54,313 bases of DNA from an uncultured Erysipelotrichaceae bacterium (GTDB lineage Bacteria; Bacillota_I; Bacilli_A; RFN20; DUOF01), in the NCBI GenBank assembly GCA_964442785.1, contig CAYTZW010000003.1, positions 1 through 54,313 of the forward strand, given 5' to 3'. Numbering within the stretch: the stretch's first letter is position 1; each line of letters starts with the position of its first letter. Under the pieces are notes generated by a model, which saw nothing but the letters and a program-made list of their open reading frames with translations, did no database searches and was not told the DNA's origin. Both the position numbers and the translations under genes were made by a program. Positions 1,112-18,453 of this stretch are shown piece after piece.

Positions 1112-1141
1112 TAATCAAAAACCCTTACTACGTAAGGGTTT
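1112..1141 (-). terminator. Intrinsic terminator of tRNA-Gly (also closes the convergent integrase gene)
   Basis: Hairpin acccttac/gtaagggt (1121-1128 / 1132-1139), followed on the minus strand by TTTTT. Confidence 0.7.
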
Positions 1142-1151
1142 ATCAACAAAA

Positions 1152-1225
1152 TGGAGCAAGTGACGGGAATCGAACCCGCGTAGTCAGCTTGGAAGGCTGA
1201 AGTTCTACCATTGAACTACACTTGC
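1152..1225 (-). tRNA. tRNA-Gly (anticodon UCC)
   Basis: The reverse complement reads GCAAGTGTAGTTCAATGGTAGAACTTCAGCCTTCCAAGCTGACTACGCGGGTTCGATTCCCGTCACTTGCTCCA. It has a 7-bp acceptor stem, anticodon loop CTTCCAA, T-loop GGTTCGATTCC and an encoded CCA. Confidence 0.95.
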
Positions 1226-3684: not shown

Positions 3685-5589
3685 TTAAATTTTCTTTGGT
3701 TTTTCTATTTCTAAAAGTTTTTCTTTGTAAAACACTGGATTACTACAAAGTTCCATTATGTTGTTAGCACTACATTTTATTGTTAGTCCGGTATTTTCCA
3801 TTTCAAAAATCAATTCGGTATCTTCAATATTATCTACTAAATTTGAATAGTTTATATAATATTTTCCGTGTAGTAAGATATTCCTTAATTGATTAAAAAT
3901 AAACATTTTATCTTTGTAGCCTTGTGGAGAATTGAATTCTTCGCTATTTTTTGTTTTGAATTGGAATCCGTCCATATCAATTTTCTTAATTGAATTGTAG
4001 ACATCATTTGTTAAAACAGGATATTCGTTGTTTTCATTTTTTTTGCAAGTTTTTTCGGTAAATTGAGTAGCTATTAAAGTATTATAAATAGAAGCACAAG
4101 AAACAACGAACGCTAATTCGTGGTCAGCAGTGTAAGACCTAAAATAATTATTAACAACTAATCTTTCATTTTTAGAAAAATCTCGCCCGCTTACCCTGTT
4201 AAGATAAGCATAAACATTTAAAGCCGTACTTGAAGATTTGTTTCTTAATAGTTTTGCAAACATTTCTAATTCATATTGTTTTAATTCTTCTAAATGGTCA
4301 ATGAAATGTTGGACAATTTTGACTTTTTCTAACCCTGGAACTTCAATTCTAGTTGATTCAATCATTGTTGAGAATAGAGAAAGGATAGCAGGAGTTAGTC
4401 CATTTTTGACTTTTTTATTTCCAAATCCTCCGTCTATTTTTAAGTTACTGGAAGTAGCTAGAAAATATATTTGTTCATTAATATCATTGATTTCATAAAA
4501 TTGTTTGTCGTATCTAAATCTATTTTTCCATTGTTCGACATAAAGAGAATAGTTTTGGTCATCTCTAGCAAAATTAAAATCGATTTCAAAGTCAGTAAAT
4601 CCTTGTTTTTCTAAAGCTTGTGCTAGATATGTTTTAATTGTTTCTTGATGTTTTTTTATAATAATGGAAGCTTCTTCAGGGCTTTTTTTGTTTAATTGAT
4701 ATTTTAATTTTTTATCCATTGCATATACTTTGTTAAATAATTGTTCTTCAATAAAATCTCTAGTAGCCATATAGTTATCTTTTAAGTTTTTGATAGTTAT
4801 CGTCGTATGAATAGTATTATTAAAAATACGTTCTAAATCTTCTTCACTTTGTAAAGGTTTGTTATCGATAAGGATATAACGTGGAAAATAGAAATTGGTT
4901 TCGTTTTCATTTGTTTTAAAATAGGCACTATGAAAATAAACTTTTTTAAATTCTCTTAGCCACGATTCACATAATAAAACATCTATATTTTCACTTTTGT
5001 CTTTAAATAAGTAACAAGTTTCGTTTAGATTAGGGAAAGTTCCTTCATAAAAAGAATTAAGTTCTTCTTTTCCGATTTTTCGATAATCATTATGAGCCAT
5101 ATTGTTACGAATAATGTTAACAATATGACGGGGACTTAATTTTTTTTGATTTAAGTAATTAGACACTAAAACACTGTTGCATTGGGCGGTAACTTCATAA
5201 TCTTTTCCTTTGTTTACTCTTACTTCTTTTCCAAATATATCTTTATAAATAATTTCATTACCATTACGGGTTGTTTTTAAGTCGGCTATTTTTTGTTGGA
5301 TTAAATCTCCTTCGTGAGTTTCTTTTTTTATGACTTTTTTGAAAGTTCCTTGTTCTACCATTGTTTTTAGTGTTTCATCATCAATATCTATTGAAGAATT
5401 ATTAAGCAAGGAAAGAAAAGCAAAATCGGTAATTTGGTCATAAATGAATTGAAAATTCAATTCTTTATTTCTACCAATTTGGTCATAAAAAACATAGTTT
5501 TTATTATCAACTAAATCTTCTTTCACATAATCTTTTTGAGTGGCTATATCAAATAAAAATTGCAAATATTTTTGGACATCTTGGTACAT
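3685..5589 (-). CDS. Orphan dual-HEPN protein (634 aa), predicted RNase
   Basis: Two R-x4-H motifs of the RN-type: IIRNNMAHNDY (nt 5109-5092) and NQLRNILLHGKYY (nt 3885-3868), about 400 aa apart. Start set at ATG 5589, 8 nt after AAGGAG (5603-5598). The tracked GTG 5598 overlaps the SD. Confidence 0.65.
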   Translation of the reverse strand: MYQDVQKYLQFLFDIATQKDYVKEDLVDNKNYVFYDQIGRNKELNFQFIYDQITDFAFLSLLNNSSIDIDDETLKTMVEQGTFKKVIKKETHEGDLIQQKIADLKTTRNGNEIIYKDIFGKEVRVNKGKDYEVTAQCNSVLVSNYLNQKKLSPRHIVNIIRNNMAHNDYRKIGKEELNSFYEGTFPNLNETCYLFKDKSENIDVLLCESWLREFKKVYFHSAYFKTNENETNFYFPRYILIDNKPLQSEEDLERIFNNTIHTTITIKNLKDNYMATRDFIEEQLFNKVYAMDKKLKYQLNKKSPEEASIIIKKHQETIKTYLAQALEKQGFTDFEIDFNFARDDQNYSLYVEQWKNRFRYDKQFYEINDINEQIYFLATSSNLKIDGGFGNKKVKNGLTPAILSLFSTMIESTRIEVPGLEKVKIVQHFIDHLEELKQYELEMFAKLLRNKSSSTALNVYAYLNRVSGRDFSKNERLVVNNYFRSYTADHELAFVVSCASIYNTLIATQFTEKTCKKNENNEYPVLTNDVYNSIKKIDMDGFQFKTKNSEEFNSPQGYKDKMFIFNQLRNILLHGKYYINYSNLVDNIEDTELIFEMENTGLTIKCSANNIMELCSNPVFYKEKLLEIEKPKKI

Positions 5590-5609
5590 AATTAACACTC
5601 CTTGACATT

Positions 5610-5638
5610 ATTATCTTTAAATCTAAAAGAGATGTAAA
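5610..5638 (-). promoter_or_regulatory. Sigma-70-type promoter for the dual-HEPN gene
   Basis: Minus strand has TTTACA (5638-5633), a 17-nt spacer, then GATAAT (5615-5610), inside the 75-nt gap (5590-5664) after the upstream gene. Confidence 0.5.
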
Positions 5639-5664
5639 TAGATTAAGGAAATTTTGTGATGAAA

Positions 5665-6156
5665 TTATTTTAAAAGCATACTAAAATGGGCAGTACAAAT
5701 ATTTGGTAAGACTTTTTGAGTTGCTCTAATTATTCCAATGTCATCTTCAAAGAAATAAACCATATATTCTTCATCTTTTAACATTTTTTCAATGTATTTT
5801 GATTTAAGAAAATTTTTTGTTTCTTTGTCATATTTTTCTTCTTTTAATTTGATTATTTGAACAAAGTTTTTATTAACAAAAGGCATATTAGTTTCTAGCC
5901 ATTTTAATTTATCTTGTTTTTGTTCTTCATATAAACAATTACTAACAATTCCTATCGTTATATTTTCTTCTTCACTTAGACTTTTAAAAATTTCAATCGT
6001 AGTTTGAATTGGTCTTCTTTTCAAATAGAAAGAAGGTGCGTTTGAGAGAATGTTTTTTTTCTCATTAATTCCAAATTCTGCGACTACTCCGTCCATATCA
6101 GTAAGTATTAATACATTAGTATATTTTGCTTGTTCTTTTATATCATCGATTATCAT
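5665..6156 (-). CDS. HAD-superfamily hydrolase, 5'(3')-deoxyribonucleotidase-like (NT5C/YorS-like)
   Basis: Motif I LTDMDGVV (DxDGV), motif II IVSN, motif IV FFEDD. Small 163-aa size. AAGGTGA SD. Confidence 0.5.
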   Translation of the reverse strand: MIIDDIKEQAKYTNVLILTDMDGVVAEFGINEKKNILSNAPSFYLKRRPIQTTIEIFKSLSEEENITIGIVSNCLYEEQKQDKLKWLETNMPFVNKNFVQIIKLKEEKYDKETKNFLKSKYIEKMLKDEEYMVYFFEDDIGIIRATQKVLPNICTAHFSMLLK

Positions 6157-6299
6157 TTTTTATCACCTTTTTTTTATTATAAGATAATTTTCTGTTGTTG
6201 AATATTAAAATTTTTATTAAAAAGAGAAAATTAGGATACTTTTTGTTTAAAAGTACCTTAGATTACTATATAATTTATATATACTAAGGAGTTAAAAAA

Positions 6300-7640
6300 A
6301 TGGGATTATTGCAAGAAATGTATGATAAATCAAATAATCTAAATATGGAACATAAAGAAGATATTCACGATGTGATTTATGTTTCTTTTTTTGATGTTTT
6401 AAAAGAAAAAAAAGTTAAAAGAAAAGTCTTTCAATTATCTACTTGTGTTTGTTTAGAAAGTCAAAATATTCATAAATTTTATGTAAAATGTCCTAAATGT
6501 GAAGGAACGGGAACAATAAATATTTTCAGCAATGATTTAACTTGTAATTGTTGTAAGGGAAAAGGAAAAATATGTAAAGAAATATGTCCTGTTTGTAAAG
6601 GAAAAACGACAATTATAAGAAAAAAAGAAATGGAGATTTCTCTTAATAAATCATTACTAGATAATCCTGTTTTAATTGTTTCTAAAAAGGGAATTAATCA
6701 AGGTGATTTGATTTTAAAAGTAGTCATTTTTGATAAATATTTTTATTCTATTAAAGATGATGATATTTATTCTAAAAAGGTTCTTTATTTTTCTAAAAAA
6801 GAATTTAAAAATAGTAAAGAAGTAGAAACTATGGTAGATTTTAGTTCTATCAAATTAGATAAAATTGTTTATCAACAAGTAATAAAACTAGAAGGAAAAG
6901 GTTTAAATGGAAAAGATTTTTATCAACCTATTCAATGTGAAGTTGCAGGAAATAAGGGAAAAAATAATTATGGAAACCTTATTTTAGAGAAAAAGGAAAA
7001 AGGAGTTTATGTTAAAAAAGAAAGTTTATATAGTCAAAATTTAGTTTTTGATTATAGTTTGACTAAACCTTTAAATGACCCAAATTATTTGTATTTAGAT
7101 TTAACAAATTTTAGTAAGAATTATGATATTTTAACTTTTAAAGAAATGGGATTTCCAAGTTTAGACGGTGGTGTCAATGGTGATTTATTAATCAAAGTTT
7201 TCGTTGGAAAATACTTTGTTAAAGATAATGCTTTATATCGTTATGATGAACAATTAACTAAAACAGAACTTAGTAGTCATAAAAAAAGTATTATTGTAGA
7301 TAATGAAAAGTATTTAGTTAATATGGACAAAAATCAGGAAAGTAATTATTTTTTGTCTATGGGTAATTTTGGTTTGTTGGACAAAAATAATAAACAAGGT
7401 GCTTTTTTTACTTTAATTAATCATTCTTATTCTATTTATCAAATAAGTACTTTTAACAAGGAAAATCATTTTTATATTGAAGATTATCAACATTTCTTTG
7501 GAGAAAAAGTAAAGAGTTATGCTTCTTGTTCCAATATGGAAGATTATATTGAAGTTAAAGTGTCTTCTAATCCTGTTAGAGTAAAAGATAGTAAAGGTAA
7601 TTTAGTAATTGTTTCTTTATTAAAAAAGGAGGAATTGTAA
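6300..7640 (+). CDS. DnaJ-like protein lacking the J-domain (Zn-finger plus DnaJ C-terminal substrate-binding domains)
   Basis: CxxCxGxG-type repeats CPKCEGTG, CNCCKGKG and CPVCKGKT (nt 6489-6609). Two GDL-strand motifs typical of DnaJ CTDs (NQGDLILKVVIF, VNGDLLIKVFV). No HPD/J helix region. AAGGAG SD. Confidence 0.7.
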   Translation: MGLLQEMYDKSNNLNMEHKEDIHDVIYVSFFDVLKEKKVKRKVFQLSTCVCLESQNIHKFYVKCPKCEGTGTINIFSNDLTCNCCKGKGKICKEICPVCKGKTTIIRKKEMEISLNKSLLDNPVLIVSKKGINQGDLILKVVIFDKYFYSIKDDDIYSKKVLYFSKKEFKNSKEVETMVDFSSIKLDKIVYQQVIKLEGKGLNGKDFYQPIQCEVAGNKGKNNYGNLILEKKEKGVYVKKESLYSQNLVFDYSLTKPLNDPNYLYLDLTNFSKNYDILTFKEMGFPSLDGGVNGDLLIKVFVGKYFVKDNALYRYDEQLTKTELSSHKKSIIVDNEKYLVNMDKNQESNYFLSMGNFGLLDKNNKQGAFFTLINHSYSIYQISTFNKENHFYIEDYQHFFGEKVKSYASCSNMEDYIEVKVSSNPVRVKDSKGNLVIVSLLKKEEL

Positions 7641-10600
7641 TGCTATATTTTGATTTTAGCCAAATTTATCAAAATCGTTATGTTAAAAGAGCTCAAGAAT
7701 CTGATTTTTTTAAAGAATTAGAATTGCTTGATATAACTTTTTCTTCTTATTTGAAAGATATTTTTTCTAAATATAAAAACTTTTATGTTTCTTGTCCTAA
7801 TATTGAAAGAAAAGTAGTCAAAGAAGTTAAAAAAGATGTTTACAAGAATTACTTTTTTCGTCCTGTAACGGATAATGAAAAAGAAATTACTTTAAAAACG
7901 GATTTAGTTTTTAGTGAAGAAAAAATTGCTATCGAAGTTAAAGATATTTATATAAATAAAAATAAGCCTAAACAAAAGTATGAAAATAAAATATCTTGTT
8001 CTGTTTCTACTTTTATCGAAAATAAAAAAGTTAAAAGTGATGCCGATTTATTGCGAAATATTATTTCAAATACGCCTTTTATATGTGATGAAAAAGGAAA
8101 AAATTTTATTAGAAAATGGCTTGATTATTTAGAATTTGAAAAAAACTTTTTTTATGACAAAATAGGTTATCTTTATAGTTTAAGTTTTGAAGTTTTAGAA
8201 ATAGTGGAAATAAAAAGAAATCTTGAAAATTTCCAAAAGTATAAAGATGTTCTTTATTATGATGATAGAAGTAATTATCTTTATGTTAAAAAGGAAGATT
8301 ATTTAGGAAATGAAAATTCGTTTTTTGTTGTCGAATTTGAAGTTTTTGTTAATGATGATAATTATAATTGGGTTTCTTCTTTTATAAGTGAAGATATCGA
8401 AATTGCTAATGTTAAAGAAGCGTTAGATGAAAATAAAAAATTGAAAAATAATACCCTTAGTGATATTGAGTTTTCTTTTAAAACAAAAAGATTAGGAAGT
8501 CTTTTAAAACCTTTAACTTGCAAAGATGAAAACATTTACACTTTTTCTAAATTTTGGGTAGGAGATGAATTGATTCTTGAAAGAATTAATGATTACATTT
8601 GTTCCTTTTTTGGAGAAAAACCTTTGCTTGTTAATATTTTAAGTGGTGATTTAGCATTGTATAAACGTGGAAAACAAGCAATGTGTGATTTGTTGGAAGG
8701 TAATGTTAAAAATCCTGGGATAATCTCTTATTTAATGAACCCCGAAAGTTTAACTTTAAATGATGATGTTGCTTTACAAGACATTAAGTGGTCAGCTTCT
8801 TATTTAGACCAATATCAAAAGGAAGCTATTTGGAAAGCTTTAAATAGTGATTCTTTATTTTTAATACAAGGCCCTCCTGGAACAGGAAAAACTCAAGTAA
8901 TTAGTGAACTTGTTTATCAAGCAAATAAAATAGGGAAAAAGGTTTTATTGTCTAGTCAAACTCATATTGCCATTGATAATGCTTTGGATAGATTACCTAA
9001 TCAATTAGATATTCTTCCAATAAGATTAATCAATTTGGAAAGAAAATCTAATTCTGTTAAAGATTTTTTACCAGATAAATTAGTGGATAATTTATACAAT
9101 AAAATAAAGGAAAATTATCATAATAAACAAGATGATTTTATAAAATTTTATAAACAAATAAAGGAAAATAAAAAAGAATTAAAGGAAATAAAAGATTTAA
9201 TAATTGAAAATAAAATAGAAAGAGAAAATTATTTATCTTTAAAAGAAACTATTAATCAATTAAAGACAAAAATATTAATTAACAATAATGAAATTAATAA
9301 CTTGTTTTTGTCCATAAAAGAAAACAAAAAAGATTTAGATGTTTTATCTTTGTTAAAAAATAATGATTATCAAATTAAAGATTATGGTTGTTATATCAAT
9401 TTGGATTTGTTCAAGGATTTTAATAAGATTATTGATAAATATCAACTTAATAGTTTTTATAATGTTGAAAATAATGATTTGAATCAATATTTTAAAATTT
9501 GTTTAAGTGAAAACTTATGGGGAAATGAAAAATTTAGAAAAGATTATCAAAATATAGTAGTTTCTTTTAAAATTGATAATCAAAAAGAAATAAGTATCAA
9601 GGAAAATGAAAAAGAAATTGAAAAGTTAACAAAGGAAAAAATAGTTTTCCTTTCACAATTAGAAAAAGAAGAAAAAGAAATAAGAATTTTAGAAAAAAGT
9701 AAAAAGAAAATCTTTAATCAAATAGATAATTATTTTGCGAATAATTTAGATTTTGATAATCTTGATATTCCTTTGACTGATTTAGATAAAGTTGCTTTTT
9801 TGGAAGAAGAACTAACAAAAAAAGAACAAGAATTAAAAGAAAAAGAAGAAAGATATTTACACTATAAATCTTTATATGATGATTGTGTTGAATTTTTAAA
9901 TAAGAAAAATGATATTGAAGATGATAGAAAAAAATTAACTCGATATTTATTGAATAATAACGCTAATGTCTATGGAATTACTTGTAATGCTAATTCTTCT
10001 TATTTGGAAGAAAAAAATGAATATTTGAAATCTTTAGGTTTAGGAAATGTCGATTTAAAGAATATTGATTTTGATATTACCATTATTGATGAAGTTTCCA
10101 AAGCCACTCCAATCGAATTATTAATTCCTATTTTATATTCTAAAAGCATTGTTTTAGTAGGAGACCACCGACAATTACCACCAACATTTAAGTATAAACC
10201 AAATATGTTAGATAGTTTGAGCAGTGAAAACAAAATAAGTGTCGACAAATTAAAAGAATATCAAAATATGGTCGAAGATAGTTTGTTTAGTAATTTATTC
10301 ACCCGTACTAAAAGTAATAAAGCAATGTTAGTTAATCAATATCGAGCTCATCAACAAATTGTTGAAGTTACTAATACTTTTTATGAAGATAAATTACAAA
10401 TCGCTGATGTTGAAAAACAAAATAAAGCGAAGGAACACCATATTCAAATTAGTTTAAAAGATAATCCTTTGTTTACTAAAAATGTTCATACTTATTGGTT
10501 CAATTCTTTTTATAATAAAGACGGCTCAATTTCTTATGAGAAAAAGTTGTCTAAAGGTAATGAATTGTCTTCTTCTTTTATCAATGAAGAAGAAATCTAT

Positions 10601-11059
10601 TTGACCGAAAATATTTTAAAAGAATTAGATAATTTCTTTGCAGAAAATGAAATTGAAATGTCTTCTATTGGTGTTATTAGTTTGTATAATGACCAAGTTA
10701 AAGAAATAAGAAAAAAAGTTTTAAAAACAAAATATAAAAAACTTCAAATAGATGCTAGTAAAATATCTAGTGTTGATGAATTTCAAGGAAAAGAAGAAGA
10801 TATTATTATTGTCAGTTTAGTAAGAAATAATCCTAAATTTAATGCAGGTGAATTTACTAAAAAATTTGAAAGAATAAATGTTGCTACTTCAAGGGCTAAA
10901 AAAATGCTTATTGTTTTAGGAGCGACACCTTTCTTTACTAAATTAGAAGTTCCAATTACTTCAATGGAAAATGGTGAAAAAGTAAATCGTAAATTATACA
11001 AAGAAGTTTATGAAAGATTTGTCGGAAAAATAGAAAATCCGAATGTATTTTTTGATTAA
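7640..11059 (+). CDS. Upf1/Sen1/Dna2-like SF1B helicase (AAA_11/AAA_12 type) with an unknown ~400-aa N-domain and a long coiled-coil insert
   Basis: Motif I GPPGTGKT (8870-8893), Ia SSQTHIAIDNALDRL, II IIDEVSKA (~10082-10105), III VGDHRQLPP, IV QYRAHQQI, V VDEFQGKEEDIIIVSLVR, VI INVATSRAKKMLIVLG. A K/E/N-rich heptad-like region spans ~9092-9947. The start overlaps the upstream stop codon (TAATG 7638-7642). Confidence 0.9.
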   Translation: MLYFDFSQIYQNRYVKRAQESDFFKELELLDITFSSYLKDIFSKYKNFYVSCPNIERKVVKEVKKDVYKNYFFRPVTDNEKEITLKTDLVFSEEKIAIEVKDIYINKNKPKQKYENKISCSVSTFIENKKVKSDADLLRNIISNTPFICDEKGKNFIRKWLDYLEFEKNFFYDKIGYLYSLSFEVLEIVEIKRNLENFQKYKDVLYYDDRSNYLYVKKEDYLGNENSFFVVEFEVFVNDDNYNWVSSFISEDIEIANVKEALDENKKLKNNTLSDIEFSFKTKRLGSLLKPLTCKDENIYTFSKFWVGDELILERINDYICSFFGEKPLLVNILSGDLALYKRGKQAMCDLLEGNVKNPGIISYLMNPESLTLNDDVALQDIKWSASYLDQYQKEAIWKALNSDSLFLIQGPPGTGKTQVISELVYQANKIGKKVLLSSQTHIAIDNALDRLPNQLDILPIRLINLERKSNSVKDFLPDKLVDNLYNKIKENYHNKQDDFIKFYKQIKENKKELKEIKDLIIENKIERENYLSLKETINQLKTKILINNNEINNLFLSIKENKKDLDVLSLLKNNDYQIKDYGCYINLDLFKDFNKIIDKYQLNSFYNVENNDLNQYFKICLSENLWGNEKFRKDYQNIVVSFKIDNQKEISIKENEKEIEKLTKEKIVFLSQLEKEEKEIRILEKSKKKIFNQIDNYFANNLDFDNLDIPLTDLDKVAFLEEELTKKEQELKEKEERYLHYKSLYDDCVEFLNKKNDIEDDRKKLTRYLLNNNANVYGITCNANSSYLEEKNEYLKSLGLGNVDLKNIDFDITIIDEVSKATPIELLIPILYSKSIVLVGDHRQLPPTFKYKPNMLDSLSSENKISVDKLKEYQNMVEDSLFSNLFTRTKSNKAMLVNQYRAHQQIVEVTNTFYEDKLQIADVEKQNKAKEHHIQISLKDNPLFTKNVHTYWFNSFYNKDGSISYEKKLSKGNELSSSFINEEEIYLTENILKELDNFFAENEIEMSSIGVISLYNDQVKEIRKKVLKTKYKKLQIDASKISSVDEFQGKEEDIIIVSLVRNNPKFNAGEFTKKFERINVATSRAKKMLIVLGATPFFTKLEVPITSMENGEKVNRKLYKEVYERFVGKIENPNVFFD

Positions 11060-11072
11060 TAGGAGGTATTTT

Positions 11073-11864
11073 ATGAAAATTAATTTTTTATCTTTCACGG
11101 ATTATAAATTAAAAATTAATACTTATAAAAAATGTGATTTAGATTTTTTTAGTTTTTTGTTACTTAAAATTATCACAAGTGAAAATAAAGAAAACAAGTC
11201 ATTAAAATCTATCCTTTTTGATTTTGAAATTACTGAACCTTTGATGTATTTAGCTTCTAATGCTTTTTATGAATTAATTGATAATCATTTAATCGAAACT
11301 TCTTTATCTTTTGAAGAAGTAAAATGTTTAGATATTATCACCAATGATTTGACTTATAAATGTTTAGAAAATAACTATTTTTTGATTTTAGAAGATAGTA
11401 AAGAACAAAGTGTTGCCATTAATCCTTTGAATTATAAAATTGTTTTTAATGATAACAAATATAAAGATGATTATCTTGTTTATAATAAAGAAATTAGTTT
11501 ATCTTTGTTAAATGAAATAATTAATGAAAACAAAAAAAGTTTATTTAATATTAGCGATGATTACCAAATAGAAGTAGAAATACTAGAAGCTAATCCTTTG
11601 TTTACAGAATTAAATTGTAAAGACGTGGAATTTCCTTTAGATTTGAAAGAAATTATTTATGACAATTTGCAATACTTTGAAAAAGAAAATCTAAAAGAAT
11701 ATGAAAAAGATTTCGTGATTTTAACAAAAGAATATGAACTAGAAAAAAATGATAAATATGATTTTATAGCAACTTTGAATAAAGAAAAATATGGCTGTTT
11801 TTATTATTTGGTTGCTTCTAATATTGGAAAAATACCAATGATAAAAAGGACAAAATTAAAATAA
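11073..11864 (+). CDS. Hypothetical protein (263 aa), operon member
   Basis: ATG 11073 follows AGGAGG (11061-11066), 14 nt after the helicase stop codon. No catalytic motifs recognised. The N-terminal ~90 aa may be a small helical/wHTH-like module (weak). Confidence 0.6.
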   Translation: MKINFLSFTDYKLKINTYKKCDLDFFSFLLLKIITSENKENKSLKSILFDFEITEPLMYLASNAFYELIDNHLIETSLSFEEVKCLDIITNDLTYKCLENNYFLILEDSKEQSVAINPLNYKIVFNDNKYKDDYLVYNKEISLSLLNEIINENKKSLFNISDDYQIEVEILEANPLFTELNCKDVEFPLDLKEIIYDNLQYFEKENLKEYEKDFVILTKEYELEKNDKYDFIATLNKEKYGCFYYLVASNIGKIPMIKRTKLK

Positions 11865-11879
11865 TAGGAGGTGAAAAAG

Positions 11880-13280
11880 ATGGATTATTACAAAACTTTG
11901 AAAATAAATGAAAATGCGACTAAAAAAGAAATCGAAGAAGCATATAAACTCTTAAGTGATACTTATAATCCTCTTTATAATACTTCTCCGATTGCTTATA
12001 AAAGATATCGAGAAATTCAATATGCGTACCAAATGCTTCAAAATAAAGAATTGATTACTTTTGAAGAAAATGAAATAACTATTCCTGAAGAAAAAGCAGA
12101 AAAATTTGATTATGAAAATTATTTTAATCATCAAAAAGAAATAAATTATATTCCACTGGAAAATGAAGATATCGAATTATATCAAAATGTTAAAACCGAA
12201 AACGAAACTTTAGACCTTTATAAATATCCTTGTGAGATAAATGTTGATTATTTAAAACTTCTTTTAAATTGCCAAATTGATGTTCTTGTTTTTGAAAAAG
12301 AAGAATGTAAAGAAGCTACTCTTTCCATTTGTCCCGTTTGTAATGGAATAGGAGTAGTAGAATATCAACAAAAAAATGTTGTTTGCCCTAAATGTAATGG
12401 AAAAAAGGAAATAAAAGAAGGCCATTGTCATCATAGTTTAAGAAAAGAAAAAAAAGTAAGATTAGATTTGTCAAAAATAGATGTTACAAAACCTTTGATA
12501 ATCTTGGATACTTACTTAACTTTTAACATTTTAAATAAGGACAAAGTAAAAGAAACTAAAGATGAAATATATGTTAATTATGATTTGTCAAAAGAAGAAA
12601 TATTAAAGGGCTTTAATCAAGAATATAATACCGATAAAGGTGTTTTATCTGTTAAGACAAAAAACTTTGAAGAAGACTATATTCTTAATTATGAAGATAA
12701 AAAACTTATTTTTCATTTCAATACTTTTTCTTTTGATGGAAACAATATTGAAAAAACGATTATTTTCAATAAAAAACATTTACATAAAACTTTATATCTT
12801 AACTTAGATAACTTAACTTATTCTTTAGAAAAAACCTCTCAATTTAATTATGAATTTGTTTTATCTAATCTAAAAGGTTCTTTTAAAGTCAAAGAAAAAG
12901 GAGAAAAAGGATATTTAGAAGGAAAAAATGGTGATTTAATTTTGAATTATTTTGCTTGTAATCATTATTTTGAAAGTAGCAAAAATATAATGATAGAAGA
13001 AACTAGTTTACTATCCAATCTTTTTAAAGATTTTAAAATAAAAGGAAAAAATTATTTGCTTGAAAAAGATGATAAATTAGTAATTTTAACAGGAACATCT
13101 TCTAAAAAAGATTACCTAAAAAACTATTTTTGGTTTAAAATCTTGATTTATTTTATTTGGTTATTAATACCACTTATTTTACTAATAGCACCTTTGAGTA
13201 AAGAATTATTTATTTCGATGTGTATTGTTTCTATAAGTTATGCTATTTTAGCAAATGTTTTGTTAAGATTAAAAATATAA
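11880..13280 (+). CDS. Membrane-anchored J-like/DnaJ-like Zn-finger protein with a degenerate HPD motif
   Basis: N-terminus DYYKTLKINENATKKEIEEAYKLLSDTYNPLYN...YREIQYAYQMLQN aligns to the J-domain, but HPD is replaced by NPL (11967-11975). Has CPVCNGIG (12330-12353), CPKCNGKK (12384-12407) and GKNGDLILNYF. Two C-terminal hydrophobic helices (~13125-13270). ATG 11880 lies 8 nt after AGGAGG. Confidence 0.7.
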   Translation: MDYYKTLKINENATKKEIEEAYKLLSDTYNPLYNTSPIAYKRYREIQYAYQMLQNKELITFEENEITIPEEKAEKFDYENYFNHQKEINYIPLENEDIELYQNVKTENETLDLYKYPCEINVDYLKLLLNCQIDVLVFEKEECKEATLSICPVCNGIGVVEYQQKNVVCPKCNGKKEIKEGHCHHSLRKEKKVRLDLSKIDVTKPLIILDTYLTFNILNKDKVKETKDEIYVNYDLSKEEILKGFNQEYNTDKGVLSVKTKNFEEDYILNYEDKKLIFHFNTFSFDGNNIEKTIIFNKKHLHKTLYLNLDNLTYSLEKTSQFNYEFVLSNLKGSFKVKEKGEKGYLEGKNGDLILNYFACNHYFESSKNIMIEETSLLSNLFKDFKIKGKNYLLEKDDKLVILTGTSSKKDYLKNYFWFKILIYFIWLLIPLILLIAPLSKELFISMCIVSISYAILANVLLRLKI

Positions 13281-13293
13281 AGGAGGAAATAAA

Positions 13294-15570
13294 ATGAAAA
13301 AAAATATTATTTTATGGTCATTTTTCTTGATTTTGCTTTCTTTCTTTATGATTTTTACTAGTGAAGAAATAAAAGCAAAAGAAGTATCTACCAATGATTT
13401 TGCTATCTCTGTTGGTAAAGATAATGTTATCTGGCCTTCTTTTGAAAAAAATGAAGATGATACTTATACTTTACATTTTGGAGTAGAAATAAAAGGAACT
13501 AGTCAAGAAGATTTAACTTTTTCTTTGAAAAGTGAAATAACTTATTTTATCAATGATGAAGAACAAAAAGAAATTGACGAGTTAGATAATAATGGAGATT
13601 ATTTTTCTTCCCAAGGAAGTTATACTTTTGATTTATATGATGAAGATATGCCTAGTTATGTTTTAGGAGAATCTCATATTGATAAGATTTATTTTCAATT
13701 TACTTTTGAATGTATAAGTAATCCAACTTACACGTATGCCATTCAAGTTAGTCCCCTTATCGAATTGGAAGTCCAATATGATTATACAAAACCTGTTCTT
13801 TGTGAAAATGAAAATGAATGTAATTATTTAAGCAATAATTCATATTTAACAGAAGATTATCAATTTAAGTTTACAGCGAGTGATGATGTTTCAGGGGTTG
13901 ATTATATTAAATACTTTTTTAGTACCTCTTATTTTATGAATATAAATAAAGATAAATTTGTTAATCAAATCGTTAATGGAGGGACTTTTTCCTACCAAGA
14001 AAATAGAGAATATTTAATTAATTATGGGCAAGCTACTATAAATATCTATTTATATGTTCTTGTCCAAGATAATGCGTCTAATTATTTGTGTATTTGTTTT
14101 AATTATCTTTACCTTTTAGAAGAAGTAGAAAACAATTTGATTTATAACAAAGAAAACAGTTCTATTCCTAATACCGATAACTATTATAAATCTATTAATA
14201 TCAAAATAGATGTTGAAAATGATTTGTATTATGGTATTAGTTATTATAATTATCTTGATGCTTCTAGTTTGAATAATAGCAAATATCTTTATGATAAAGA
14301 AAAAGGAATTGAAATTAATTTACCTTATACTTGTGAAATATATGTTTTTATTGTTTCGTTTGGTAGTGATGATAGTTTTACTTTTATGATTTTACGTTAT
14401 AAACTTGATAATACTGCTCCTACTGTTACTAGTGCCAATTATCCAGACCTTGACCTTACATATAAAAAGGTTACTTTGAATTTTCAATTTTCGGATAATT
14501 CAGGAACATTTAGTTCTTTTTATCAAATTTCTTCTACTATATTAGAGGATTTAGGAACGATTACTAATGTTTATGAAAATGGAACGGATTTAATTGTGGG
14601 AGAAAACCTAAATGGAGAATATTATATATATTTTGCTATTTATGATGCTTTAGAAAATGTTAATTGGTTTTATCTTCATTATATTTTTGATAATCTACCC
14701 CCTGTTTTAACCTTATCAATAAGTGAACAAGATGCTTTGCAAGTATCTAATGGGAAAAGCATCAAATTAACTTTAAATGAGTTAAAAGGAACTACTTTTA
14801 AATGTAAATGGGCTTTAGATAATTTAGAATTAAGCGAAAATGACTTAGATGCAACTTGTAACAAAGATTCTTACATATCCGCTCCTAATAATAGTGAAGG
14901 ATATTATCGTTTATGGGCTTATTTAGAAGATGATGCCGGTAATAGCACTCTTTATCATTCATATCCTTTTTTAATAGATAGCAAAGGTCCTATAGTAGAG
15001 ATTATTCCTACTTATAATGATACAACTTATCGAGAAACTAACCTTATTGATATTAAAGCAACAGATACCTATACAGGCGTTTCTACCGTGTATTATAAAT
15101 GGTTGACTTATGACCAAAATATAACTTCAGGTACAAGTGTTAATTATGAAGTAATTGATAAAATTGATTATCCTTCCGATAGTTATGGTGTTTATGCCTT
15201 GTGGGTTTATGCTATAGACGGTGCAGGAAATGCTACTTTGTACAAAGATAGCAATAAATACTATGTAGATACTGAAAAATATAATTTATCTTTAATTGGT
15301 AAAGAAAAAATAACAATAGTGAAAAATGAAAAATTTGTTGACCCTGGAGTTAAAGCTTTAAAAGGCGAAAGAAAAGTCGCTTACCAAATTGAAAGCGACC
15401 TAGATATTTCCAAAACAGGAGTTTATACCATTACATACAAATTAGACAATTTAACAATCGAAAGAAAAGTAGAAGTTACTAATACTACTTCGTATTATCT
15501 TCTTATTTCTATTTCAACTTTTCTAGGCTTAATTGTTAGTTTTCTTCCTTTAAGAAAGAAAAAGGTTTAG
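13294..15570 (+). CDS. Surface protein with signal peptide, repeated Ig-like domains and a C-terminal TM anchor
   Basis: N-terminal MKKNIILWSFFLILLSFFMIF; C-terminal YYLLISISTFLGLIVSFLPLRKKK. Recurrent D-x-[ST]G / D-x-AGN strand motifs (SDDVSGV, QDNASN, SDNSGT, EDDAGNST, TDTYTGV, IDGAGNAT). DUF5011-like KFVDPGVKA...GVYTITYKL. AAGGAGG SD. Confidence 0.75.
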   Translation: MKKNIILWSFFLILLSFFMIFTSEEIKAKEVSTNDFAISVGKDNVIWPSFEKNEDDTYTLHFGVEIKGTSQEDLTFSLKSEITYFINDEEQKEIDELDNNGDYFSSQGSYTFDLYDEDMPSYVLGESHIDKIYFQFTFECISNPTYTYAIQVSPLIELEVQYDYTKPVLCENENECNYLSNNSYLTEDYQFKFTASDDVSGVDYIKYFFSTSYFMNINKDKFVNQIVNGGTFSYQENREYLINYGQATINIYLYVLVQDNASNYLCICFNYLYLLEEVENNLIYNKENSSIPNTDNYYKSINIKIDVENDLYYGISYYNYLDASSLNNSKYLYDKEKGIEINLPYTCEIYVFIVSFGSDDSFTFMILRYKLDNTAPTVTSANYPDLDLTYKKVTLNFQFSDNSGTFSSFYQISSTILEDLGTITNVYENGTDLIVGENLNGEYYIYFAIYDALENVNWFYLHYIFDNLPPVLTLSISEQDALQVSNGKSIKLTLNELKGTTFKCKWALDNLELSENDLDATCNKDSYISAPNNSEGYYRLWAYLEDDAGNSTLYHSYPFLIDSKGPIVEIIPTYNDTTYRETNLIDIKATDTYTGVSTVYYKWLTYDQNITSGTSVNYEVIDKIDYPSDSYGVYALWVYAIDGAGNATLYKDSNKYYVDTEKYNLSLIGKEKITIVKNEKFVDPGVKALKGERKVAYQIESDLDISKTGVYTITYKLDNLTIERKVEVTNTTSYYLLISISTFLGLIVSFLPLRKKKV

Positions 15571-15821
15571 TCTTCTCTTTCGTGTTTTATTTTGCCCCAG
15601 AAAAAATAATAAACAATGATATAACTTATTCCAAAACCGATTAATTTATTACTTTGTGTTCCACCAATAAAAAGAACACCATTAATACCGACAGAAATAA
15701 AGATTAGAACTAGTTTCCACAAGAAATTATCTTGAACACGGGTAGCAAAATCAAAAAGAGATAAAGTTGTAAAACCTAAAACGAAACCTAAAGTTAATCC
15801 ATATAGAAACATTTTCATCAT
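15567..15821 (-). CDS. Small integral membrane protein (84 aa, ~3 TM)
   Basis: Hydrophobic ORF. Its 3' end overlaps the convergent surface-protein gene by 4 nt. Confidence 0.5.
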   Translation of the reverse strand: MMKMFLYGLTLGFVLGFTTLSLFDFATRVQDNFLWKLVLIFISVGINGVLFIGGTQSNKLIGFGISYIIVYYFFWGKIKHERED

Positions 15822-15901
15822 TCCTTTACTTTTTTAATATAACAAAAAAAGATATAAATTTCATTATTTTTGTAGTATTATTTATGCAAAGGGGTGCTAG
15901 T

Positions 15902-17230
15902 ATGGAAAAAATAAATCAAAAATGGTTAGAAAAAACAAATAAAGAATATCTAAATAATAAAACACAAACTATTGTAAGAAGGGCTTTATATAAAAGTGAT
16001 TTAAATCAAATTTCTCAAGTAATGGAAGAAAATGAAAAAAATCAATTTAGATTTTCTTGTGAAATTCCTACAATGGAAGCCACTAATCAAAAAGCAAGTG
16101 GAAGATGTTGGATTTTTGCAGGATTAAATGTTTTAAGAGAAATAATTGCTAAAAAGTATAATATTGAAAATTTTGAATTATCTCAAAACTATGTAGCTTT
16201 TTACGATAAACTAGAAAAGATTAATTATTACTTTGAATCTGTAATTAAACTTTTAGATGTTCCTGCTGATGATAGAACATTAGTTTGTATCAATGAAAAT
16301 GGTATCCAAGACGGTGGACAATGGGATATGCTTGTTAGTGTTATCGAAAAATATGGTTTAGTAACAAAAGAGGCAATGCCAGAAACTGCTTCTAGTTCAA
16401 ATACAAGAAAAATGAACGATTTAATCAATATTAAATTAAAACAATTCTGTGCTAAAGCAAGAGACTTACATCGTAAAAAAGAAGATGACAAAATTAAAGA
16501 ATTAAAAGAAGAATATTTACACGCTGCTTATACTTTATTATGTAGTTGTTTTGGAGTTCCACCTACTAAATTTAACTTTGAATATGTTAATAAAAAGAAA
16601 GAATATAAAATTGAAAAAGATATTACTCCTTTAAAATTCTATCAAGAATATATTGGAGATGTTTTAAAAGATTATGTCAGCATTATCAATTCTCCAACTG
16701 AAGATAAACCTTTTAATAAAGTATTTACTGTAGAATATATTGGTAATGTTGTTGGTGGACACCCAATCAAATACTTAAATTTACCAATGAATGAATTGAA
16801 AAAACTTGCTATAAAACAATTAAAAGACAATGAAGTAATTTGGTTTGGTTCTGATTGTGGTAAAGACGGTGATCGTGATGCTGGCTTATGGGATAATAAA
16901 ACTTATGATTATGGAACAACTTTTGAAACAAGTTTTGAATTATCAAAAGCAGAGATGTTAGATTATCGTTATAGTGCAATGAATCACGCTATGGTTTTAA
17001 CAGCGGTAAACCTAGAAGGAACTAAATCTACCAAATGGAAAATTGAAAATAGTTGGGGAACTGAAAGAGCTCATAAAGGTTATTATATTTGTTCGGATTC
17101 TTGGTTTGATAAATATGTTTTCCAAATTGTTGTCAATAAAAAACATTTAACAAAAGCTCAATTAAAACTACTAGAGGCAAAACCAATTAAATTAAATCCT
17201 TGGGATCCAATGGGAACTCTTGCAGATTAG
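15902..17230 (+). CDS. pepC: Aminopeptidase C / bleomycin hydrolase (C1 family)
   Basis: QKASGRCWIFAG (Cys), NHAMVLT (His), ENSWG (Asn). ATG 15902 follows AGGGGTG. Confidence 0.9.
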   Translation: MEKINQKWLEKTNKEYLNNKTQTIVRRALYKSDLNQISQVMEENEKNQFRFSCEIPTMEATNQKASGRCWIFAGLNVLREIIAKKYNIENFELSQNYVAFYDKLEKINYYFESVIKLLDVPADDRTLVCINENGIQDGGQWDMLVSVIEKYGLVTKEAMPETASSSNTRKMNDLINIKLKQFCAKARDLHRKKEDDKIKELKEEYLHAAYTLLCSCFGVPPTKFNFEYVNKKKEYKIEKDITPLKFYQEYIGDVLKDYVSIINSPTEDKPFNKVFTVEYIGNVVGGHPIKYLNLPMNELKKLAIKQLKDNEVIWFGSDCGKDGDRDAGLWDNKTYDYGTTFETSFELSKAEMLDYRYSAMNHAMVLTAVNLEGTKSTKWKIENSWGTERAHKGYYICSDSWFDKYVFQIVVNKKHLTKAQLKLLEAKPIKLNPWDPMGTLAD

Positions 17231-17241
17231 GAGGTAAATAT

Positions 17242-17457
17242 ATGAGTAAATTTGAAATAGTCAAAAAGGCTTTAGAGCCAAAAGTAAAAGGAAAAGAAAT
17301 AACTAAAAATTCAACTTTTAAAGAACTTGGATTAGATTCTTTGGATTTAGTAGAAGTAGTCTTAGAAGTAGAAGAATTATTAGACTACAAGTTTAAAGAT
17401 GAAGATTTAATATCTTTAAAAAGTATTCAAGATGTTTTAGACAGAGTAGGTGAATAA
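17242..17457 (+). CDS. Acyl carrier protein
   Basis: LGLDSLDLVEVV phosphopantetheinyl-Ser motif. 71 aa. AGGAGG SD 17228-17233. Confidence 0.8.
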   Translation: MSKFEIVKKALEPKVKGKEITKNSTFKELGLDSLDLVEVVLEVEELLDYKFKDEDLISLKSIQDVLDRVGE

Positions 17458-17458
17458 A

Positions 17459-17881
17459 ATGCTAATAAATGAACTAAAAAAAGCTAATATGGAAGCTTTA
17501 AAAAATAAAGATACTAATTCAAGAGCAATTCTTTCTGTTTTAATCAATAAATATATGCTTTTAGAAATTAATAAAAGAGAAAAAGGTGAAGAAGTAGTAG
17601 ATGCTGATGTTATTTCTTTAATCCAAAAAACGAAAAAAGAATTACAAGATGAAAAAGAGAATTTTCTAAAAGTTGGTAATGAAGAAAGAGTTTCTTTATT
17701 ATTAGAACAAGAAAAAGTTTTAGATAAATTTTTACCTAAAATGTTAAGCGAAGATGAAATTAGAAATATTATTAATAGTCTTTCTGATAAATCAATTCCT
17801 GCGGTAATGAAATATTTTAAAGAAAATTATGCAGGAAAATGTGAAATGGGAAAAGTTAGCCAAATCGCTAAAAACTTATAG
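17459..17881 (+). CDS. GatB/YqeY-domain protein
   Basis: N-terminus MLINELKKANMEALKNKD...RAILSVL and a size of ~140 aa are typical of YqeY. A hairpin gttgcca/tggcaac plus T-run follows at 17882-17903. Confidence 0.7.
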   Translation: MLINELKKANMEALKNKDTNSRAILSVLINKYMLLEINKREKGEEVVDADVISLIQKTKKELQDEKENFLKVGNEERVSLLLEQEKVLDKFLPKMLSEDEIRNIINSLSDKSIPAVMKYFKENYAGKCEMGKVSQIAKNL

Positions 17882-17952
17882 TTGCCATTGGCAACTTTTT
17901 TTATTGATTTTCTTTTTTATGTGATATAATCAAACAAAGAGGTTATTAGATT

Positions 17953-18441: not shown

Positions 18442-18453
18442 CAGGAGGTTAAA

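Follow-up and report, generated by a model that had tools for sequence, protein, structure and literature searches.

The window, a stretch of 54,313 nucleotides from an uncultured low-GC gut bacterium, contains a tightly packed plus-strand operon of five genes, in which a UPF1-like SF1B helicase is encoded together with a winged-helix-like partner, two DnaJ derivatives and an Ig-repeat surface protein. We tentatively regard it as a lineage-fixed, fast-evolving derivative of the helicase plus winged-helix modules on which Mokosh and, within CoCoNuT, the CnuH-CnuE pair are built. Its likeliest role would be anti-phage or anti-mobile-element surveillance, a reading to which we give a little less than an even chance.

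Organization of the locus

The operon genes are termed g1 to g5 in 5' to 3' order, g2 being the helicase. Together with two minus-strand genes upstream they are:

3685-5589, minus strand: 634-aa HEPN-like candidate, outside the operon
5665-6156, minus strand: 163-aa HAD/NT5C-like nucleotidase, outside the operon
6300-7640, plus strand: g1, soluble DnaJ-derived protein, 446 aa (Pfam DnaJ_C and a weak zinc finger)
7640-11059, plus strand: g2, UPF1-like SF1B helicase, 1139 aa (Pfam AAA_11/AAA_12)
11073-11864, plus strand: g3, winged-helix-like partner, 263 aa (AF2, Foldseek and hhalign)
11880-13280, plus strand: g4, membrane-tethered DnaJ paralog, 466 aa (Pfam DnaJ)
13294-15570, plus strand: g5, Ig-repeat surface protein, 758 aa (Pfam Bact_surface_Ig-like and Big_3_2)

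All seven open reading frames called in an earlier note on this DNA were recovered at its positions, and the gene junctions it described were verified in the sequence. g1 and g2 overlap in a TAATG (7638-7642), the g2/g3, g3/g4 and g4/g5 gaps measure 13, 15 and 13 nt, and each gene (5/5) has an AGGAG-type Shine-Dalgarno site ahead of it. A scan of the locus sequence for terminator-like sites found none between g3 and g4. The upstream flank, annotated in that note as GNAT, does match this family, but only marginally (E 9e-4).

The helicase and its winged-helix partner

g2 is predicted to be an ATPase-competent UPF1-like helicase carrying a coiled-coil insert. It matches Pfam AAA_11/AAA_12, and the SF1B motifs are legible in its sequence (GPPGTGKT, DEVS, VGDHRQLPP, QYRAH, VDEFQGKEED and NVATSRAK); an alignment of 27 orthologs shows no variation in Walker A, DEVS or motifs III-VI. 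The AF2 model (mean pLDDT 74) delimits a family-specific N-domain (aa 1-390, nt 7640-8809) and, after Walker A, a helical/coiled-coil insert (aa 478-774, nt 9071-9961); the RecA core is intact. The best Foldseek matches are SETX, Aquarius, IGHMBP2, UPF1 and DNA2. The helicase architecture that had been read from the sequence is confirmed. Its assignment to a helicase clade used by defence systems also holds, since g2 belongs to the MkoA/CnuH clade and is matched by the PADLOC MkoA profile at 1.5e-100, the match spanning profile positions 448-1091 of 1112 only.

g3, previously noted as a 263-aa product without a family, indeed found no family match in Pfam and NCBIfam profile searches. Its N-terminal domain (aa ~10-115) is winged-helix-like, with an AF2 pLDDT of ~90 over aa 10-115 that falls below 50 beyond aa 176. 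Foldseek aligns it with the RuvB winged helix (prob 0.96, E 0.16) and also with linker histone and MarR. Moreover, hhalign relates the g3 N-terminus to that of the protein encoded downstream of the sister helicases described below (94%, E 1.3e-7). The C-terminal part evolves fast, and the ortholog alignment contains no conserved catalytic motif or residues, the C-terminal part included. g3 is a conserved winged-helix partner downstream of the helicase.

Two DnaJ-derived proteins and a surface protein

g1 and g4 are paralogous (hhalign 99.4%) DnaJ derivatives which retain zinc finger and CTD, the client-binding parts. g1 matches Pfam DnaJ_C (5.5e-8) and, weakly, the zinc finger DnaJ_CXXCXGXG (7e-4), and the Pfam search found no J-domain, as the earlier note had stated. 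Four Cys pairs occupy its zinc-finger region, with C49/51/64/67/82/85/96/99 invariant in 10 orthologs, and two CTD-like beta-sandwich repeats bear a GDLxxKV motif; the C-terminal ~140 aa are without a domain match. In g4, the J-like domain (Pfam DnaJ, 4e-10) has NPL where HPD is expected. The protein further contains a single zinc centre (one CxxC pair-of-pairs), CTD-like repeats and a C-terminal two-helix TM hairpin (aa ~417-464), which bears out the architecture proposed for it. Both proteins score far under the NCBIfam DnaJ equivalog cut-offs (g1 reaches 78 bits for DnaJ_bact against 377) and have weak NCBIfam matches to TopJ; the g1 zinc finger also weakly matches PADLOC PDC-M01B.

The J-domain has been lost from g1 and inactivated in g4, where the HPD position reads [D/N]-P-x in 10/10 orthologs. 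Because HPD is missing in all of them, the g4 J-domain should be unable to stimulate Hsp70 in the canonical manner, which makes classical chaperoning unlikely. J-like proteins without HPD are exemplified by Pam16/Tim16. Compared with class A DnaJ/Hsp40 proteins, g1 and g4 retain the CxxCxGxG zinc-finger repeats and the GDL-motif CTD beta-sandwich, and the J-fold sequence of g4 is still recognisable. They differ in the missing J-domain of g1, in the [D/N]-P-x and terminal TM hairpin of g4, and in their genomic setting, where a helicase and a surface protein take the place of dnaK/grpE.

g5 matches Pfam Bact_surface_Ig-like (5.3e-9) and Big_3_2. An N-terminal signal/TM segment, Ig-like repeats, a C-terminal TM anchor and a KKK tail are consistent with the surface protein described earlier. 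Of the five products, TM prediction places only g4 and g5 in the membrane. In two lineages (L005/L017 and L039) the g4 stop and the g5 start abut or overlap; elsewhere they lie 1-13 nt apart. Thus, g4 is membrane-anchored and closely linked to g5.

Conservation, inheritance and evolutionary rates

The order g1-g2-g3-g4-g5 is unbroken in 12/12 distinct loci with sufficient flank, which come from gut, rumen and digester 'Bacilli bacterium' MAGs with helicase identity down to ~41%. The earlier note had asked whether the helicase and both DnaJ-like genes co-occur; they do so strictly, as does the five-gene module it had centred on the helicase, and its interpretation is supported in part. The operon is vertically inherited at one syntenic chromosomal slot and present in every related locus sampled, and its five-gene form is confined to one narrow lineage. 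It was not found in phage, plasmid or viral-contig collections, and the patchy distribution that had been considered did not emerge. Of the vertically inherited core operon with a housekeeping phenotype, which the earlier note would have held against its proposal, the vertical half was found.

All five genes, always co-inherited, evolve several-fold faster than their flanks. With similar dS, dN/dS is 0.1-0.45 in the operon and 0.02-0.12 in the flanks (pepC, glp genes and AbiL). Values are 0.10-0.17 for g2 and 0.19-0.45 for g1, g3, g4 and g5, the highest of the block being those of g5 (0.23-0.45). Since dN/dS stays <1 throughout, the fast evolution could also mean relaxed constraint or surface exposure. 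In one sublineage the stop of the housekeeping gene coaE overlaps the g1 start. AbiLi/AbiLii (5.4e-66) lies downstream of the operon in relatives, where the cargo on the upstream side varies and includes PDC-S01, HipA-like and ADP-ribosylglycohydrolase genes.

The HEPN-like gene and the nucleotidase

The 634-aa orphan is a candidate dual-HEPN RNase. Its two R-N-x3-H motifs (RNNMAH at aa ~162, RNILLH at aa ~569), the basis on which it had been called dual-HEPN, are real and conserved in its few homologs, but Pfam and PDB searches gave no match. The family comprises only 5 clusters among 1.84 billion representatives and is also found beside rpmE. The dedicated promoter proposed for this gene is a weaker point, since promoter-like hexamers occur at chance level in this AT-rich DNA (99 versus 91 +/- 10 expected). 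The nucleotidase has a DMDGV motif. Its score for Pfam NT5C stays just under the cut-off (24.2 versus 24.8 bits), which an ortholog clears at 25.7 bits. It is 96.5% identical to the copy in L022 and 75% identical to the NT5C-like gene preceding the HEPN-like gene P0130 in L040, and is a conserved upstream partner of the HEPN-like gene.

The two genes are a separate conserved pair and not members of the operon; the earlier note had provisionally included them in its wider system. They adjoin it only in the window and its 86%-identical relative; in a 72% relative, operon and pair share one contig (L001) ~33 kb apart, and the pair adjoins UDG. In the window, a UDG-BacA-patatin-YchF block lies at 28.8-32.8 kb, so the adjacency is a local rearrangement. 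At the position of the pair, coaE or unrelated genes occur in the other 8 operon loci whose upstream flank is available.

Relation to known systems

The closest relatives of g2 are the ~1300-aa helicases of an unnamed sister operon (L006-L010), which share its N-domain, insert and core at 28-36% identity. There the helicase is followed by a large protein headed by a wHTH homologous to the g3 N-terminus, in some cases with a Ppx/GppA ASKHA domain, and by a ~320-aa protein, a ClpB-like AAA_2 ATPase and a small radical-SAM/Fer4_12 protein. Every partner besides the helicase and winged-helix gene thus differs. The sister operon occurs in Bacteroidota, spirochaetes and Spiroplasma, whereas the DnaJ-type operon occupies one slot in one lineage. 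Sister operons adjoin type I RM, McrBC, RloB/AAA_21 and Zac-like genes, and are stably placed beside leuS in Spiroplasma genomes. The helicase and winged-helix gene are a conserved two-gene core common to both operons, distantly related to the MkoA/CnuH helicases.

The succession of g2 and g3 fits the published rule that a wHTH-plus-effector gene lies next downstream of CnuH-family helicases (PMC11090510). CnuH itself has SmpB-like and RelE-like N-terminal domains (Bell et al. 2024, eLife, PMC11090510). Like CnuH-CnuE of type II/III CoCoNuTs, the operon combines a UPF1-like helicase bearing a helical insert after Walker A with a winged-helix-headed gene, and both have recruited chaperone families, the Hsp70-like CnuD there and the Hsp40-like g1/g4 here. 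In contrast to CnuE, g3 lacks a HEPN, PLD or Vsr nuclease; the operon also lacks CnuB/McrB GTPase, CnuC/McrC and TerY-P, and has the membrane and surface components that CoCoNuTs do not. Mokosh type I consists of the MkoA helicase and the MkoB PLD nuclease (Millman et al. 2022, bioRxiv 10.1101/2022.05.11.491447). It shares with our multigene operon a COG1112-type UPF1-like SF1B helicase, whose ATPase is presumably the motor in both. However, g2 aligns with no more than the C-terminal 60% of the MkoA profile and has no Ser/Thr-kinase domain, the operon has no PLD nuclease, and the helicase is instead accompanied by DnaJ derivatives, a winged-helix protein and a surface protein. With no nuclease, PLD or McrBC partner, the operon is neither Mokosh nor CoCoNuT. 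PADLOC yielded no named system for the whole module, only MkoA (g2 core) and the weak PDC-M01B match (g1), and literature searches found no published description of it, in agreement with the earlier view that the pairing of such a helicase with DnaJ derivatives is undescribed.

Alternative readings and proposed function

A lineage-specific housekeeping module for envelope/surface-protein biogenesis or RNA quality control is rather unlikely in our estimate. In such a module g4 and its soluble paralog g1 would hold or fold g5, as TopJ does for the Mycoplasma terminal organelle, and the helicase and wHTH protein would deal with the corresponding mRNA or link translation with the membrane. The fixed locus and vertical descent with dS equal to the flanks, the presence in all relatives sampled, the coaE overlap, the TopJ matches, the sister operon beside leuS and the lack of a recognisable toxin or nuclease in profile searches are consistent with it, as is g5 evolving fastest, as exposed proteins do. 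However, outside this operon the helicase clade is known from defence, with sister operons in RM/McrBC/Abi islands, AbiL and variable defence-like cargo border the locus, the evolutionary rates of cytosolic g1 and g3 match that of the surface protein, and the loss of HPD in all g4 orthologs speaks against classical chaperoning.

That a cytosolic helicase module (g1-g3) merely neighbours an unrelated envelope module (g4-g5) is improbable. Membrane proteins and the highest dN/dS do coincide in g4 and g5, and the helicase plus wHTH core occurs elsewhere without them; yet the paralogs g1 and g4 fall on either side of the supposed boundary, across which the 13-15-nt gaps with Shine-Dalgarno sites continue without a terminator-like site, and the order is intact in 12 loci despite divergence to ~30% identity. 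A wider system in which the dual-HEPN protein serves as RNase effector and the nucleotidase as accessory, under shared divergent intergenic regulation, is very improbable. CoCoNuT types II and III-A do pair CnuH helicases with HEPN effectors (PMC11090510), and the HEPN/nucleotidase pair is adjacent and divergent in two genomes, but synteny contradicts this arrangement, the HEPN family is tiny and also occurs beside rpmE, and the promoter motifs are at chance level. A mis-parsed Mokosh (type I) or CoCoNuT system is the least credible reading: the MkoA score, the post-Walker A insert and the downstream winged-helix gene resemble these systems, but the profile is matched only from position 448, and PLD nuclease, helicase kinase domain, McrB GTPase and McrC are absent in and beside the operon at all loci.

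Defence against phages is plausible given the helicase family, neighbourhood and evolutionary rate. The order kept in 12/12 loci, the MkoA/UPF1 family, the islands of the sister operons, the two-gene core, the AbiL genes and cargo and the fast rates are all consistent with it, and a precedent exists in the host DnaJ that has been shown to mediate phage sensing by bNACHT25 (PMC12169576). Against it stand the coaE-g1 overlap, the narrow lineage, dN/dS <1 and the result of profile searches, which found no nuclease, PLD, HEPN, TIR or other known effector inside the operon; moreover, vertical inheritance, a fixed slot and absence from mobile elements are unlike the patchy mobile island of typical defence. 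As a defence module, all five products may form one membrane-associated complex. The helicase would work on RNA or ssDNA, and g1/g4 would bind non-native or foreign polypeptide or restrain the helicase, without driving Hsp70. The g4/g5 membrane pair could serve as input (envelope sensing) or output (membrane damage or exclusion) and may stand in for the missing nuclease. What is new is the union of a Upf1/Mokosh-type helicase, two defective DnaJ copies and a surface protein in one operon, most likely serving surveillance against phages or mobile elements.

Organization and products of the operon

Five plus-strand genes (g1 to g5) are found in the window, whose GC content is ~25%. They are preceded by two minus-strand genes.

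Genes of the operon and its minus-strand neighbours (window coordinates)
3685-5589, minus: 634-aa HEPN-like gene (ORF)
5665-6156, minus: NT5C-like nucleotidase gene (ORF)
6300-7640, plus: g1, DnaJ_C and weak zinc finger, without J-domain (profile search)
7640-11059, plus: g2, AAA_11/AAA_12 helicase (profile search)
11073-11864, plus: g3, no family match in profile search
11880-13280, plus: g4, J-domain, 4e-10 (profile search)
13294-15570, plus: g5, Ig-like surface domains (profile search)

The five genes are packed as tightly as the earlier note had described: g1 and g2 overlap in TAATG (7638-7642), the later gaps measure 13, 15 and 13 nt, and each start has an AGGAG-type Shine-Dalgarno site ahead of it. 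Profile searches also upheld the domain assignments made there for all five products. The remarks on genes having their 'own promoter', however, carry no weight, since promoter-like hexamers are no commoner than in shuffled sequence (99 versus 91 +/- 10). Hydropathy places a two-helix hairpin at the C-terminus of g4 and an N-terminal and a C-terminal transmembrane (TM) segment in g5, and all other products are soluble. Between g5 and pepC, an 84-aa two-TM ORF lies on the opposite strand (15567-15821, minus). An 81-aa ORF occupies the same place in locus L025 (91% identity; dN/dS 0.05, aligned), and the ORF is also present in L001, a relative at 72% identity.

By hhalign (99.4%), the products of g1 and g4 are paralogs, with homology spanning the zinc finger and the two CTD-like repeats. 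Four Cys pairs are invariant among g1 orthologs, and g1 has two CTD-like repeats with GDLxxKV; g4 has two Cys pairs and a CTD. DnaJ_C matches g1 of the window at 5.5e-8 and its ortholog in L011 at 1.2e-18. Both proteins have the CxxCxGxG zinc-finger repeats and client-binding CTDs of class A DnaJ proteins but fail to provide a J-domain with HPD: Pfam detects no J-domain in g1, and the HPD site of g4 reads YNPLYN, with [D/N]-P-x in 10/10 orthologs. Loss of HPD from a J-domain abolishes canonical Hsp70 stimulation.

The helicase and its winged-helix partner

Walker A (aa 411-418), DEVS (aa 817-820) and motifs III-VI are invariant among g2 orthologs, and the best structural matches of g2 in Foldseek are SETX/Sen1, Aquarius, IGHMBP2, UPF1 and DNA2. 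The AF2 model of g2 (pLDDT 74) resolves the N-domain (aa 1-390) well: a beta-barrel spans aa ~45-125 and an alpha/beta unit aa ~176-306. Long helices make up an insert (aa 478-774) between Walker A and DEVS. A profile of the N-domain matched no PDB sequence, and whole-model Foldseek searches of PDB and BFVD returned helicase matches only, dominated by the core.

The nearest helicases outside the g2 family (about 1300 aa; Bacteroidota, Treponema, Spiroplasma and others) have the N-domain and the insert in common with g2 but head a different operon. This sister operon encodes the helicase, a large wHTH-headed protein, a ~320-aa protein, a ClpB-like AAA_2 ATPase and a small radical-SAM/Fer4_12 protein. 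The large protein has a Ppx/GppA ASKHA domain in some loci, such as L007. Neighbouring genes are type I RM, McrBC, RloB/AAA_21 and Zac-like genes in Bacteroidota-type contigs, and leuS in Spiroplasma. No whole-system model in PADLOC covers the sister operon, and BLASTP finds no homology between its proteins and g1, g4 or g5.

Representative sister operons
L006 (Spiroplasma monobiae CP025543): 10001-19643
L007: 9557-20077
L009: 10001-19199

The N-terminal ~110 residues of g3 are modelled confidently (AF2, pLDDT about 90) and weakly match winged-helix domains in Foldseek (RuvB, prob 0.96; linker histone; MarR). The remainder has a pLDDT below 50; the ortholog alignment reveals no conserved catalytic residues in it, and Pfam detects no nuclease family or motif in g3. 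The N-terminus of g3 is homologous to that of the gene following the sister helicases (hhalign 94%, E 1.3e-7), so that the helicase and a winged-helix-headed partner form a conserved two-gene core.

A nuclease within g2 itself was also considered. In the AF2 model, aa 195-256 (nt about 8223-8407) have the secondary structure alpha-beta-beta-beta-alpha-beta, which resembles a PD-(D/E)xK core, and D208, D209, E232 and E254 are invariant within the g2 family. Against this reading, the segment has no ExK lysine, and the acidic residues are not kept in the sister helicases.

The N-domain recurs, at 28% identity, in a 1542-aa helicase of Anaeroplasma bactoclasticum (L021, NZ_QXEV01000001, 9995-16189) that is extended by a long stretch at its C-terminus. 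An RNase_T-like exonuclease gene lies before the helicase gene and one for a DUF2130 protein after it, which gives this helicase subfamily a third set of partners.

Distribution, inheritance and rate of evolution

Some 35 full-length orthologs of g2 (40-86% identity) were found, every one of them in metagenomes or MAGs. The order g1-g2-g3-g4-g5 is unbroken at every locus with enough flank (the window, L001, L003/L014, L005/L018, L011, L012, L013, L015, L017, L025 and L039). Helicase and both DnaJ-like genes thus occur together at each of them, which answers in the affirmative the question of co-occurrence that the earlier note had raised. When 185,579 species genomes were scanned with the g2 N-domain, the DnaJ-type operon turned up in only nine 'Bacilli bacterium' or unclassified MAGs (human, sheep and digester samples), along with two distant relatives that have other operons, one in a Bacteroidetes MAG and one in A. 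bactoclasticum. A phage or plasmid origin of the operon was rejected, as neither a viral_contigs scan nor tblastn of the g2 N-domain against phages and plasmids gave a match; a PHROGs search returned generic DnaJ and helicase families only.

Most lineages have common flanks, with glp genes, DUF1667 and coaE upstream and an AAA_21 plus RloB-like pair and an M48 peptidase downstream. The window and its 72-86% relatives have a downstream pepC-YqeY-NMN transporter block in common. Protein identity is 72-94% for the flanks, compared to 28-61% for g1, g3, g4 and g5 and 44-73% for g2, whereas dS is alike in the block and the flanks (about 0.5-1.4).

dN/dS in three genome pairs (Nei-Gojobori)
g1: 0.19-0.26
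g2: 0.10-0.17
g3: 0.23-0.27
g4: 0.23-0.45
g5: 0.23-0.45
pepC, glp genes, AAA_21/RloB pair: 0.02-0.12

These values, together with the similar dS, indicate that the block is functional and co-inherited with its surroundings. Constraint on g1 to g5 is markedly weaker, or more diversifying, than on the flanks.

The AAA_21 and RloB-like genes, directly after g5 in most lineages, correspond to the AbiLi ATPase and its RloB/TOPRIM-like partner AbiLii: the L003 proteins match AbiLi (5.4e-66) and AbiLii (2.4e-4), and the L011 orthologs match Pfam AAA_21 and RloB. The pair is absent from the 54-kb window. A search of metagenomes for empty sites, anchored on AbiLi, yielded 12 loci. The distant ones belong to another lineage, and both close orthologs with upstream flank (63% and 87% identity) retain g5 upstream. 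In relatives, the DUF1667-coaE stretch that immediately precedes the operon is a hotspot of variable cargo, including PDC-S01 (AAA_14/DUF4143), the HipA-like PDC-M03A, an ADP-ribosylglycohydrolase, a 665-aa protein weakly matching Cas5-IIId and several unknowns. AbiL and the variable cargo lend the locus a defence-island flavour, although AbiL itself is conserved like a core or housekeeping gene (62-96% identity, dN/dS 0.02-0.08).

AbiLi/AbiLii pairs and cargo hotspots in relatives
AbiLi/AbiLii pair: L003 18455-20216; L005 15594-17346; L011 13142-14912; L017 18463-20215; L039 11360-13121
Cargo hotspot: L020 5571-7999; L015 6675-7499; L005 2774-5796; L013 5212-7982

A tyrosine integrase (Phage_integrase 5e-24) and an adjacent tRNA gene (1155-1225, minus) at the start of the window (113-1225) probably mark one end of an integrated element that runs leftwards out of the window. 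As an island border of the block they were rejected, because the 3' end of the tRNA points away from the block. Downstream of the operon in L001 there is a 94-aa integrase fragment, 67% identical to the window integrase. Elsewhere, the window contains an FMN riboswitch (26400-26512, minus; 101 bits) upstream of a minus-strand ORF (25670-26344), an intergenic 33-bp tandem repeat (44036-44154; 3.6 copies, 77% matches) before an ORF at 44201-45526, and a 108-bp repeat (21788-22011; 2.1 copies) inside a minus-strand ORF (21658-22662).

The HEPN-like and NT5C-like genes

The earlier note had tentatively counted the two minus-strand genes into the system. Its five plus-strand genes are indeed real and unusual, but the seven-gene version is not supported, as the HEPN-like gene abuts the operon in the window and the 86% relative (L022) only. 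In the 72% relative, the operon and a homolog (~33-34% identical; L040) occupy one contig but are separated by about 33 kb, the homolog adjoining UDG; in the window the UDG-BacA-patatin-YchF block lies at 28.8-32.8 kb. There, the NT5C-like gene (75% identical to the window copy) again precedes the HEPN-like gene, with an extra 142-aa nucleoside-2-deoxyribosyltransferase-like (Nuc_deoxyrib_tr-like) gene between them. This synteny shows that the pair is a module of its own, put beside g1 by rearrangement.

NT5C-like and HEPN-like pair
Window: 3685-6156, minus
L040: 6963-9923
L022: 4745-7159

The family of the 634-aa protein comprises only five clusters in 1.84 billion representatives. The protein contains RNNMAH and RNILLH, which conform to the HEPN R-x4-6-H motif, and RN-x3-H is kept in all four full-length members, in an alignment that is shallow (6 rows). 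No member has a Pfam match at E up to 10 or a PDB sequence match. The motifs alone therefore make the protein a candidate dual HEPN. A CRISPR or repeat partner was sought by a tandem-repeat scan and by reading both intergenic regions, and none was found. Between genomes, the NT5C-like protein is 75-96% and the HEPN-like protein 33-76% identical; the latter is the fastest-evolving of its neighbourhood (~33% versus 75-91%; UDG 91%, YchF 91%). In L022 (about 4680-4760) ATA replaces the ATG of the NT5C-like gene. The gene as called begins at the internal Met of DMDGV, whereby the first catalytic Asp would be lost. The NT5C and dual-R-x4-H pair is of interest as a near-orphan, very fast-evolving candidate RNase family.

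Comparison with Mokosh and CoCoNuT

The best PADLOC match of g2 is MkoA (PDLC03920, E 1.5e-100), which aligns g2 aa 190-1121 with profile positions 448-1091 of 1112 and leaves 1-447 unmatched. Mokosh is defined by a COG1112 helicase plus a PLD nuclease, type I MkoA also having a kinase domain (Millman et al. 2022, 10.1101/2022.05.11.491447). While g2 qualifies as a UPF1-like COG1112 RNA helicase of type I, the PLD partner (MkoB, or the fused PLD of type II) is absent: Pfam, NCBIfam and PADLOC detect no PLDc in g1 to g5 or the immediate flanks, nor is there one at orthologous loci. The Ser/Thr kinase domain of type I has no counterpart either, as Pfam gives no kinase family match on g2.

In the CnuH helicase family, the downstream CnuE gene encodes an 'elongated wHTH + variable effector' and Hsp70-like CnuD proteins are also found (PMC11090510); the helicase and winged-helix-headed core described here agrees with this CnuH-CnuE rule. 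The modelled helical insertion of g2 after Walker A matches the coiled coil of CnuH at this position. The CnuH N-terminus of CoCoNuT types II and III-A has SmpB-like OB and RelE-like domains (PMC11090510). CnuE of types II and III, however, combines wHTH with a nuclease (HEPN, PLD or Vsr), whereas in g3 only the winged-helix-like N-terminus is recognized. The CnuB/McrB NxD GTPase and the CnuC/McrC homolog are also missing, with no AAA_5/McrB or McrC/DUF2357 match in the operon or orthologous loci. Since PLD, kinase, HEPN/Vsr effector, McrB GTPase and McrC are all absent, the operon is related to Mokosh and CoCoNuT but a member of neither. It is best placed as a variant within the MkoA/CnuH helicase-partner kind. 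Literature searches retrieved no described system that joins such a helicase to DnaJ derivatives, in line with the earlier claim; literature on PDC-M01 was uninformative.

Possible functions

The five products may assemble into one membrane-associated complex. In it, the Hsp70-uncoupled DnaJ modules would bind proteins, whether clients or foreign ones, or else gate the helicase, whose substrate would be RNA or ssDNA, and g4 and g5 would supply envelope input or membrane output instead of a nuclease. A conflict or defence role for the operon is a serious possibility, if not quite an even one. That the operon instead has a lineage-specific housekeeping role in the envelope or in RNA is rather unlikely, and the probability of the remaining readings is low. 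Within the defence reading, a more specific proposal is speculative and on balance doubtful: a new helicase-centred immune class that has become part of the core genome in a Mollicutes-like lineage of uncultured gut bacteria. Its duplicated DnaJ modules, uncoupled from Hsp70, would serve a UPF1-like helicase as dedicated protein sensors or adaptors. Its membrane hairpin would wire the complex to the extracellular Ig-repeat protein, coupling an envelope event (e.g. phage adsorption, DNA/RNA entry) to cytoplasmic RNA/ssDNA surveillance without a nuclease.

If the operon has a housekeeping function, it would use a UPF1-like helicase together with membrane-located J-like proteins in an unusual, lineage-specific way. 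If it serves defence or surveillance, helicase modules of the MkoA/CnuH type can trade nuclease effectors for chaperone-derived and membrane or surface parts. Hsp40 scaffolds would then join Hsp70-like CnuD and host DnaJ (bNACHT25 sensing) among the parts of prokaryotic immunity, and a conflict-type module that is chromosomally fixed yet fast-evolving would bear on the domestication of defence in small-genome, host-associated bacteria.
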